Source: Octopus vulgaris
Taxonomy: Eukaryota
Direction: 5' to 3'
DNA length: 64,000 bases
Assembly: GCA_951406725.2 (NCBI GenBank)
Contig: OX597828.1
Span: forward strand, 63,612,001-63,676,000
Made by a program: the position numbers and the translations under genes
Shown: in pieces, positions 630-55,625 of the stretch
Numbering within the stretch: the first letter of the stretch is position 1
How the letters are laid out: each line of letters begins with the position of its first letter
The notes under the pieces: model-generated
Database searches by the model: none
Told to the model about the DNA's origin: nothing
The model's input: only the letters and a program-made list of their open reading frames with translations

Positions 630-1025
630 TGTACTGTCGTTACTGTCCTGTTTTTTTACCATTTTTTTACCATTTTTTACCCCTCTGCGAAAAGATCTCA
701 GAATTTTAATTGATTTGCTTTTCGCAGGAAGGAAAGTTTCTTGTCGAAGATACGTCTCGCTTTTATCCTTCGAAACGTAGAGTAGATGAAACCTTAGCGA
801 CTGAAGAAGGGGTTTTTTCGTTGCGTTAATTGTCCTGTACTCCATTTTTTGTTGTTTTTAAAAAAATGTCCTGTTCCTTTGGTTTGTGTCTATGTTTTCG
901 TTTCTCTTTGTGTTCGACGTCCCTTTGGTGTCCTGTACTCATATATGCGTGTATATGTACATGTAGAGGTAGGTACGTACATATATGTTTATATATATGC
1001 ATATGTTTTATTTCATTTATTAATA
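630..1025 (+). mobile_element. Non-autonomous repeat carrying the permuted HHR (copy A)
   Basis: Homologous to 42975-43440 (-), 26931-27185, 27978-28235 and, more distantly, 55335-55625 (-). Flanked by (TA)n. Confidence 0.8.
751..812 (+). ncRNA. Candidate non-circularly permuted (pseudoknotted) hammerhead ribozyme, copy A
   Basis: TACGT-C-TCGCT (751-761) ... CCTTC-GAA-ACGTA (767-779) ... AGCGA-CTGAAGA-AGG (796-810). Stem III TACGT/ACGTA, stem I TCGCT/AGCGA, GUC triplet at 754-756. Confidence 0.7.
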
Positions 1026-26930: not shown

Positions 26931-27185
26931 AAACGTGGAGTAGACGAAACGGAGGCGGCTGAAGAAGGGGAACTTTCCTTGTGTCGTATGTCTTGTACCC
27001 TGTTTTTTCGTTGTTTAAAAAATGTCCGTTTCCATGGTTCTGTTTTTAGGTTTTCGTTTCTCATTGTGTTCGAAGTTTTTTTTGGGTGTCCTGTACCTAT
27101 ATATGCATGTATATATACATATAGATGTAGATACGTACATATATGTGTGTATATATGCATATGTTTTATTTATTATTTTGTTATT
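26931..27185 (+). mobile_element. 5'-truncated copy B of the permuted-HHR element (duplicate at 27978-28235)
   Basis: Starts at AAAC-gtggagtagacgaaacggaggcgg-CTGAAGA-AGGGG directly after (TA)n; the downstream sequence matches copy A. Confidence 0.75.
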
Positions 27186-27223
27186 ATATGACGAAACCCC
27201 ACGCATCCTCTTCCAAGTAAGTT

Positions 27224-27291
<68 letters not shown>

Positions 27292-27816: not shown

Positions 27817-27869
27817 AATCGTTACAGTTGAAAAGGTCTCAAAATGACCGAAACCGGTACTGAAAGATT
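27817..27869 (+). ncRNA. Minimal type I HHR, U3-A8 core variant (duplicate at 28863-28915)
   Basis: CAG-TTGAAAA-GGTC-tcaaaat-GACC-GAAAC-CG-GTA-CTG; palindromic stem III ACCGGT. Confidence 0.65.
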
Positions 27870-27973: not shown

Positions 27974-28273
27974 ATATAAACGTGGAGTAGACGAAACGGA
28001 GGCGGCTGAAGAAGGGGAACTTTCCTTGTGTCGTATGTCTTGTACCCTGTTTTTTCGTTGTTTAAAAAAATGTCCGTTTCCATGGTTCTGTTTTTAGGTT
28101 TTCGTTTCTCATTGTGTTCGAAGTTTTTTTTTGGGGTGTCCTGTACCTATATATGCATGTATATATACATATAGATGTAGATACGTACATATATGTGTGT
28201 ATATATGCATATGTTTTATTTATTATTTTGTTATTATATGACGAAACCCCACGCATCCTCTTCCAAGTAAGTT

Positions 28274-28337
<64 letters not shown>

Positions 28338-28633: not shown

Positions 28634-28972
28634 CCACTGACCATTCAAAATACGACCATCAAGGCATTCCCAGATTTACCCACCCCCTCTCCACATCAGC
28701 CTTCTGCTTCTCCTACCCTACCAAGAACTCACAACGACCTCGAACACACAAGTGCAAACAAGGGAGTCAGAGAAAGGCAGAATGCCACTTATATCTGAAC
28801 ACTACTATAGAAATATTCCTTTAAAAAAACTTTTCTTCTAATTTTTCTAAATTTAATTATTTAATCGTTACAGTTGAAAAGGTCTCAAAATGACCGAAAC
28901 CGGTACTGAAAGATTCACTATAAAATTATCTTAGCACTTTCTATTTTTGACTTGTTTTTTCATATATATATG

Positions 28973-42976: not shown

Positions 42977-43440
42977 AATTAATAAATAAAATATATGCAT
43001 ACATACATACATATATGTACGTACCTACATCTACATGTATATATTCATGCATATATAAATATATATATATATATATATGTGAGTACAGGACACCACAAAT
43101 AGACGTAGAACTCAACGAGAAACGAAAACCTAAAAACAAACATGGAAACGGACTTTTTTTAACAACAAAAAAACAGTACAAGACAAACAATACAAGGAAA
43201 ATTTCCCTTCATCAGCTGTCCCTAGTTCGACTCCATGCGTGTTTCGAAGGTAAGGACAGAACACGACCCGTCGATTCAATCCTTCCTGCAAAAGAATTAA
43301 ATAAAATTCCTTTGCAGAGGGGTAAAAACAAGGAAAGAAAAAAATGTGACAAGAACAGGGCGTAAAAGCAATACAAATTAAATGCAATTACAAATAAAAA
43401 TACAAATACAAAATACAAATACAAAAAAATACAGTACACA
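42975..43440 (-). mobile_element. Non-autonomous repeat carrying the permuted HHR (copy C)
   Basis: Shares ttttacccctctgc...gcaggaagg, ttttcgtttctc and gtgtcctgtactca with 630-1025. Confidence 0.8.
43204..43265 (-). ncRNA. Candidate non-circularly permuted hammerhead, copy C
   Basis: Minus strand: CGTGT-T-CTGTCCTTA-CCTTC-GAA-ACACG-catggagtcgaac-TAGGGACAG-CTGATGA-AGGG. Stems I and III differ in sequence from copy A but still pair. Confidence 0.7.
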
Positions 43441-55334: not shown

Positions 55335-55625
55335 ATGCATATATGAGTATAGGACGTCACAAATAGTAAACAACATGATATACGAAAACAAATGAGTTGA
55401 ATCCACAAACATCGAGAGAACGAAATGGAAAACAGGAGAGGTAACATACAGAACGTCCCTTCATCGGTTGTCGGCTGCTTATCTACTCCTCATTTCGAAC
55501 ATTGAACAGACAATATGAGTCTCCGAAGGCAGTTGATCCCATAAATACCAAAATAAAACTTGGGATTTATTGAGAACAAAAACAGGACAGTGGGGACACA
55601 AGGAAACCGAACGAAGACAAACATG
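55335..55625 (-). mobile_element. Diverged copy D of the permuted-HHR element
   Basis: Shares actgtcctgttttt, gagtaga, tttcgtt(t)ctc and gtcct(a/g)tactcatat with the other copies. Confidence 0.6.
55451..55519 (-). ncRNA. Candidate non-circularly permuted hammerhead, copy D (U4C core, stem II register unclear)
   Basis: Minus strand: CTCAT-A-TTGTC-tgttcaatgTTC-GAA-ATGAG-gagtagataagcagcc-GACAA-CCGATGA-AGGG. Confidence 0.6.

Follow-up and report, generated by a model that had tools for sequence, protein, structure and literature searches.

The locus raises two questions: whether chromosomal DNA of Octopus vulgaris encodes hammerhead ribozymes whose three core strands follow one another in an order that is not a circular permutation of the standard types, and where such an RNA would obtain its stem II. 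The window, by which we mean the whole stretch of 64,000 nucleotides that was analysed, is AT-rich eukaryotic DNA rich in microsatellites. A reading of the bare letters (the sequence-only reading) had proposed three copies of a hammerhead with the order cleavage site (block S), GAAA (block G), CUGANGA (block C), and all three were present in the window at the places given for them. The first, on the plus strand, has H at 756, GAAA at 772 and CUGAAGA at 801. The second (43203 to 43323, minus strand; H at 43260, GAAA at 43245, CUGAUGA at 43215) belongs to a separate subfamily and has all the helices described below; a descriptor for the order S, G, C retrieved both of these copies. The third (55455 to 55576, minus strand, H at 55514) is older, with a CCGAUGA core (a U4C change) and one mismatch in the leader, and was found by a relaxed descriptor. 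Two further plus-strand copies begin 18 nt 3' of H and have no S block: one (26931 to 27224) runs into the tail of its unit, and the other (27978 to 28274) is its duplicate within a local repeat of about 1.05 kb. The spacings proved to be conserved, as had been claimed, with the start of CUGA lying 29-30 nt from the start of GAAA, slightly wider than the 25-26 nt first given.

The S block of the first copy occupies 751 to 761 (stem III strand 751-755, H17 = C756, stem I strand 757-761, predicted cut 3' of 756) and the G block 767 to 779 (stem II strand 767-771, G12-A13-A14 at 772-774, stem III strand 775-779). The C block, with the P4 strand that precedes it, covers 788 to 807 (P4 strand 788-795, stem I strand 796-800, CUGAAGA 801-807), and CUGANGA lay 3' of the G block in all copies. 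When the motif was searched for genome-wide, as had been suggested, the matches were far above chance. The G-to-C pattern gave 4,879 exact matches compared with 0 for the reversed control, and a disjoint G-to-C pattern gave 3,185 compared with 13, so that the two disjoint patterns together found at least 8,064 G-to-C block matches in the 2.8-Gb assembly. Relaxed patterns brought in more families (1,816 matches against 938 in the control, 497 against 2, and 1,094 against 282). Left out of the counts were loci with G-C words and no valid S block (L334-L336) and loci with a leader that was not resolved or was truncated (L337, L340).

In an alignment of 22 real copies made from sequence only, pairing reached 96.4% in stem III and 98.1% in stem I, and two-sided changes affected 4 of the 5 pairs of either stem, which agrees with the proposal that these two stems covary across copies. 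The whole core was kept in 18 of 18 subfamily consensuses (which represent 148 of 194 intact copies), and the catalytic bases CUGANGA, GAAA and UH were retained in the 18 subfamilies with widely differing stems, H never being G; this retention was partly demanded by the search patterns. The core bases and the covarying stems I and III identify the motif as a hammerhead in the non-circular S-G-C order. Standard models do miss it, as the sequence-only reading had expected: in an Rfam scan with 578 hits in the window, the 150 best contained no hammerhead family, nor did 47 hits on 7 loci. Three loci (L065, L134, L316) carry internal deletions, from or beside the cleavage site, that removed the stem I or the stem III strand and that possibly reflect imprecise rejoining or template jumps at the cut. 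Three others (L177, L182, L195), antisense to a neighbouring PLE ORF, contain type I hammerheads with a long stem II and a non-palindromic stem III, which probably belong to other repeat families.

The order as such had been put forward as a new topology, a claim that the literature contradicts. Eckert et al. (2023, PMC10085705) describe the hammerhead as blocks S, G and C, which as three unbreakable blocks give six layouts, CUGANGA and the adjacent stem strands being assumed inseparable; the S-G-C order is their type SGC, and its cleavage in vitro was shown, at 0.007-0.19/min. They report 583 SGC examples, all from metatranscriptomes, and know the CSG order from two metagenome sequences. The Eckert descriptors ask for CUGAUGAG or CUGAUGAUG and limit the linker to 15 nt, so that most of the copies here escape them.

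The origin of stem II is a separate matter. The sequence-only reading formed it from AGG immediately 3' of the core and CCT before GAAA, or from a second register of the same strands. The AGG/CCT helix was 71% paired and did not covary, 126 of 500 shuffles reaching its covariation score, and both registers need an A after A9, where whole subfamilies have C, T, TT, TA, CC or ACT; this degree of pairing, together with bases that vary in kind and in number, rules out stem II in either register. The five bases before GAAA pair with a strand located 19-28 nt upstream of H, and both sides change together, as in GAAGG:CCTTC, GAGCA:TGCTC, GCT:AGC and GGCTG:CAGCC (leader:G strand). In the first copy this leader strand lies at 728 to 732, the equivalent of 10.1-10.5, with its partner at 767-771. 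Positions 3-5 were paired in 66 of 66 cells across the 22 copies, all of them Watson-Crick, and 4 of the 5 pairs showed two-sided changes once further families had been added, among them family 6, which was found without any tail constraint. The leader matched its own G strand at 4 of 4 positions in 87% of 127 copies, as against at most 2% for the strands of other families; the corresponding values were 71% of 42 copies against at most 7% in a second family, and 83% of 6 copies against 0% in a third. The exception is a 3-copy AGCTC family, which is bulged (own strand 0 of 3, CAGCC 3 of 3). The least conserved pair of stem II is the G10.1 equivalent, found in 16 of 22 copies and in 17 of 20 of the extended set. 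As read from these alignments, the chain is opened between A9 and G10.1, and the 5' leader supplies the missing strand.

Three further helices surround this stem. P4, the 'I' helix of Eckert, begins one base past the stem II strand of the leader and takes as its partner the linker that immediately precedes stem I (734 to 740 with 788-795 in the first copy, one bulge). Leader and linker gave a cognate mean of -8.25 kcal/mol compared with -5.85 kcal/mol for non-cognate pairs. The contact between stems I and II is thus present as P4, with weaker support than the other helices have, its cognate partner ranking in the best 10% for 5 of 20 families only; since its register differs between families, P4 was left out of the column counting and helices were read per family. 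An I helix formed by the 3' tail, as in Eckert, was rejected, because tail and linker gave no signal (-5.0 versus -4.67 for non-cognate pairs). P0 is a hairpin (685 to 727, stem 685-694/718-727 in the MFE fold) that ends on the base before the stem II strand of the leader; it was 89.3% paired in 16 copies, showed two-sided changes in 4 of 5 pairs, and closed exactly on that base in 134 of 213 full-core copies. P5 joins the bases 5' of P0 (679 to 684) to the bases 3' of A9 (808 to 813), which are therefore part of a closing helix and not of stem II. When P5 was anchored at the base after A9 and the base before P0, the mean Watson-Crick fraction in 134 copies was 0.79 at slide 0 and at most 0.58 when slid, and of these copies 102 had T:A and 11 had G:C as the first pair. 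Counted by column, P5 is weaker than any other helix counted (76.7% paired, 16 copies), and its duplex energy of -7.6, compared with -5.4 for shuffles, represents a moderate gain in a set of 200 copies, of which 22 were removed because the leader scored below 4/5 and 18 because they had no hairpin.

For the full model with its five counted helices, 90.3% of 402 cells were paired in 16 real copies of divergent subfamilies, whereas slid partners gave at most 44.8%. Changes on both sides were found in 19 of 26 pairs, a number that 0 of 500 shuffles reached and that, as the families share history, reflects a handful of events and not independent ones. The nested MFE fold of 675-850 was unremarkable (z = -0.77). 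The motif covers 679 to 813, well beyond the extent of 751-812 first assigned to it, and the construct of about 735-825 that had been proposed for a cleavage assay lacks the stem II strand and the closing helix, so that a negative result with it would mislead. Because the gap after A9 is bridged by P5 and P0 and stem II comes from the leader, the model has a four-way junction at the core, in which P5, P0, stem II and the G-A tandem with stem III are predicted to meet without unpaired bases. Such a junction would most likely be stacked, keeping the core in its normal geometry and active.

The same rows could be read as a plain type SGC ribozyme, in which the G run after CUGANGA provides G10.1 and the core-proximal part of stem II, and the leader adds distal pairs at most or acts as a strand-swapping off-switch. 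The tail GG of most octopus-type families is able to pair with C11.1-U11.2 (G:C11.1 and G:U11.2; 22 of 22 rows), which was partly demanded by the search patterns, the first G of the leader is absent in 6 of the 22, and one extra base after A9 is common in SGC-1 and in Penelope minimal hammerheads. However, this tail:G-strand helix showed no covariation in the 22 rows, and the best tail pairing had three or fewer Watson-Crick pairs in 133 of 134 copies, compared with five for the leader in 113, although these leaders had been preselected for at least four pairs. Furthermore, some families have a spacer of up to 3-5 nt after A9, P5 with its compensatory changes accounts for the G run, and the tails of two cnidarian elements discussed below, Naiad-3_Chem and 2_Movir, cannot pair there as judged by eye from their consensi. 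We consider a plain SGC ribozyme improbable and retain the opened core, in which the leader provides the missing strand of stem II. Models with a composite stem II or with a mobile strand-exchange junction involving the tail TTC were also discarded, their leader:tail helix having no two-sided changes and being superseded by P5; a 68% pairing of tail and G strand depends on where MAFFT places gaps and was not counted as evidence.

One extra base at the link between A9 and stem II is tolerated in viroid and Penelope hammerheads, a detail reportedly described by De la Pena and Flores in 2001. The core insertions in the available part of Perreault 2011 lie at other places. A full-text search of openly accessible papers found no helix between A9 and G10.1, and neither SGC nor CSG described from Naiads or from any animal genome; the S-G-C order is already known, but a split core, a setting in animal chromosomes and a link to Naiads did not come up. 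The octopus copies share with the type SGC of PMC10085705 (HRIMA-1 and its variants) the order of cleavage site, GAAA and CUGANGA, the full core, a short link between stems I and II, and a helix joining the far ends of these stems after a 1-nt link. SGC-1 has the same unit (a 5-nt stem II strand, 1 nt, an I-helix strand) after CUGAUGA-U, 3' of the core, whereas here it lies on the 5' side. Type SGC has an unbroken block C, with the stem II strand within 1-2 nt of CUGANGA, and an I helix that pairs the G-C linker with the 3' tail; in the octopus copies block C is broken and the I helix draws on the leader. They also differ from the metatranscriptomic SGC examples in being thousands of chromosomal copies in which A9-G10.1 is opened by P5 and P0. 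With CSG-1 and CSG-2 they share the cyclic order, stem II strand, I-helix strand, S and G following one another, but in CSG the P4 strand, the stem I strand and CUGANGA lie 5' of S and G in one motif and run straight into stem II, whereas here they have moved to the 3' end.

Similar layouts occur at the ends of Naiad elements, which Craig et al. (2021, PMC8557442) describe as having no canonical hammerheads, with 8 entries flagged 'HHR_half_core'. We read by eye the last 200-650 nt of 24 of the 54 Naiad consensi, on the assumption that the FASTA order equals the table order. The split form ends 4 of the 24 (Obim, Ovul, 3_Chem, 2_Movir), and in the two cnidarian elements among them, 3_Chem and 2_Movir, the tail, unable to form stem II, makes a helix of 8 and 5 bp, respectively, with the bases that precede P0. 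Complete type CSG with an I helix was seen in 7 (Smim, Parc, Hpol, Hcon, 1-, 2- and 3_Nbra), and the other 13 of the 24 ends gave no resolvable layout by eye; among the 'HHR_half_core' entries, 5 of the 7 examined resolved to a layout. Thus at least 11 Naiad consensi appear, by eye, to carry a hammerhead of scrambled order, and this offers an answer to a point left open by Craig et al., namely why Naiads seem to be without the hammerhead of other Penelope-like elements. Five further consensi (Naiad-1/2/3_Dst, Bfor, Esco) have the core words and an apparent I helix with no valid S block by eye, and may represent further layouts. In the octopus genome, family 8 corresponds to the 3' end of Naiad_Obim and Naiad_Ovul, motif included (1,747 first-look candidates; 40 scored, 86-100%), and this family is old. 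The split form can be derived from CSG by shifting the first part of the motif to the 3' end, a rearrangement that duplication and trimming within a tandem would yield, and the motif would probably derive from Naiad 3' ends in which a CSG ribozyme was duplicated and then trimmed.

We lean towards regarding the split form as a seventh natural hammerhead layout, in which the CUGANGA-stem II block is split, the ends of the RNA join in a new helix, a four-way junction sits at A9/G10.1, and four helices would form a clamp for protein-free cutting and circularisation; CSG and the split form would then be the regular ribozymes of many Naiads of nematodes, spiders, cnidarians and cephalopods, with thousands per genome. 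A conserved break in block C would extend the list of six layouts in PMC10085705 and would mark A9/G10.1 as a place where the core accepts additional helices, a property of use in engineering. The same split ribozyme, with a closing helix of 12-14 bp and a longer P0, occurs in a separate retrozyme-like family of 866 bp (L005 2018-2900, L034, L035, L061, L208, L341), which is often inserted beside other families in one (TA)n tract.

The carrier units are ORF-less and retrozyme-like, with a full or tandem unit length of 589-1,019 bp, and are inserted in (TA)n. Their copies share a 3' terminus, 267 nt past H and bordered by (TA)n, while their 5' ends vary, and they occur as monomers and tandems, often partial dimers or trimers, with one hammerhead per unit. 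The first copy lies in a 5'-truncated unit of the approximately 0.9-kb type (630 to 1023, plus strand) between (TA)n tracts, and copies of the window's family are 99-100% identical. Immediately 3' of the (TA)n tract of the first copy there is a long, near-perfect inverted repeat (1587-1911 / 1997-2322), with arms of 248 and 84 nt that are 98-99% complementary. With Naiads (PMC8557442) the units share the (TA)n target, the fixed 3' end, 5' truncation and partial tandems with a tail; the Naiad arrangement of N-terminal GIY-YIG followed by RT in one ORF is absent from the ORF-less units of the window, and for family 8 the comparison covered 3' UTR sequence. BLAST of the window's families against two Naiad loci found no similarity outside the motif region. 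As in animal non-LTR retrozymes (PMC7229834; 10.64898/2026.07.22.740005), the units are ORF-less up to about 1 kb, contain one hammerhead each, form monomers to multimers and are linked to Penelope-like elements; those retrozymes, however, accumulate as linear and circular RNA and are described with type I hammerheads only, and the hammerhead here is not type I. The available retrozyme descriptions in these two sources include no cephalopods, and in the latter (Li, Clavereau, Pollet 2026) cleavage was seen in 1 of 9 retrozyme dimers tested. The motif also resembles the minimal type I hammerheads of Penelope pseudo-LTRs (PMC4209133), which lie near the 3' end of the element and for which precursor cutting and circles were proposed; unlike the motif here, those have the canonical order and a weak or palindromic stem III, and are active as dimers.

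The 5' ends bear on whether the predicted site is cut. In a sample of 98 copies picked by an intact G-to-C stretch, reduced to 96 by removing 2 with internal deletions, 24 of the 96 ended within 11 nt 3' of H, compared with 8 in the next 34 nt upstream (p = 2.6e-9); genome counts for one young family were 505 at H+29, 401 at H+1 and 391 at H-6. Because the peak of these ends (17 of 24) falls 7-10 nt 3' of H, not exactly at H and often with TA microhomology, stalling of the RT at the structure could be its source. Among family-1 copies, which form an unbiased set, 24 of 30 continue 5' of H, that is, most read through the predicted cut site. Given the offset and this read-through, the bias at the predicted cut is suggestive of cleavage, and the read-through copies need circles or uncut precursors. 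The case for function combines conservation with this indirect 5'-end bias.

We think it likely that the locus is explained as a whole by a split hammerhead of SGC/CSG order, opened at A9-G10.1 and predicted to cleave itself, in a Penelope-type retrozyme. The RNA would run, from 5' to 3', through P5, the P0 hairpin, the stem II strand, a 1-nt link, P4, S, G, P4, stem I, CUGANGA and P5. The source would be a non-autonomous Penelope-type element, and the ribozyme would cut 3' of H (756), freeing unit-length RNA from tandem precursors. The upstream piece, held after the cut by stem II, P4, stem III and P5, may favour re-ligation to circles. A Penelope-like RT/GIY-YIG enzyme would then prime at (TA)n from the fixed site 267 nt 3' of H, and the RT would stop near the cut 5' end or read through on circles or uncut precursors, giving rise to partial tandems.

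The fold might also be real and serve chiefly as a docking or recognition structure for the retroelement enzyme, cutting being slow or absent; the extension of most copies across the cut site, the displacement of the 5'-end peak from H and the poor cleavage in vitro of many Penelope hammerheads are consistent with this. We judge it unlikely, because all catalytic bases are kept in the 18 subfamilies despite their differing stems and, in the consensi read, in Naiads of four phyla and two layouts, and because the 5' ends show a step at the predicted site. Slighter still is the chance that the active form spans two neighbouring units or two molecules, one contributing its C block and tail and the next its leader, S and G. 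The ribozyme would then have the CSG order, the loop of P5 would be an entire unit, and the linear monomer would be inactive. In favour of this, units often occur as tandem dimers and trimers, dimers are the working form of animal type I and Penelope hammerheads, and CSG is the layout of 7 other Naiads among the consensi read; but every helix can form in one 135-nt copy with linkers like those of the active SGC ribozymes, and nothing in it is palindromic or too short in the manner that forces dimers in minimal hammerheads.

For the self-cleaving retrozyme that we favour, the candidate mobilisers are elements with a 781-aa RT and C-terminal GIY-YIG ORF. These young elements were rejected as carriers of the motif, 0 of 20 extended GIY-YIG loci having it in sense in their own 3' UTR; L181, L182 and L184 did give hits, but these are neighbours in antisense orientation. 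In L225 the 3' end of an element of the 781-aa type is fused seamlessly with a unit, and in L155 the two are joined through about 20 nt of TA. Since family 8 is old and the window's family is 99-100% identical, the intact 781-aa family appears more likely than the Naiad family 8 to be the present mobiliser; from its CX4CXXC motif we infer that it is Neptune-like. In members of this young Penelope-like family (L176-L180, L193, L194) the 781-aa RT-GIY-YIG ORF is intact and another ORF, 330-480 aa long, lies before it, for which there was no Pfam match over the cut-off; their long 3' UTR consists of CCAAT/TGACGTC repeats, and the descriptors used found no sense-strand hammerhead in these loci. 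A canonical-order minimal hammerhead with a palindromic stem III and a variant core (YUGAAAA, GRAA) is present at 27825-27862 and 28871-28908 (plus strand) and also in L225; it lies at the 3' end of a C-terminal GIY-YIG Penelope-like element and alternates with the partial SGC copies in the 1.05-kb local duplication. Finally, at L005 967-1000 and at 27185-27224 of the window, the tail past the fixed 3' end has a TA-rich stretch and a splice-donor-like AAGTAAG, which resembles the intron-bearing start of Penelope elements.
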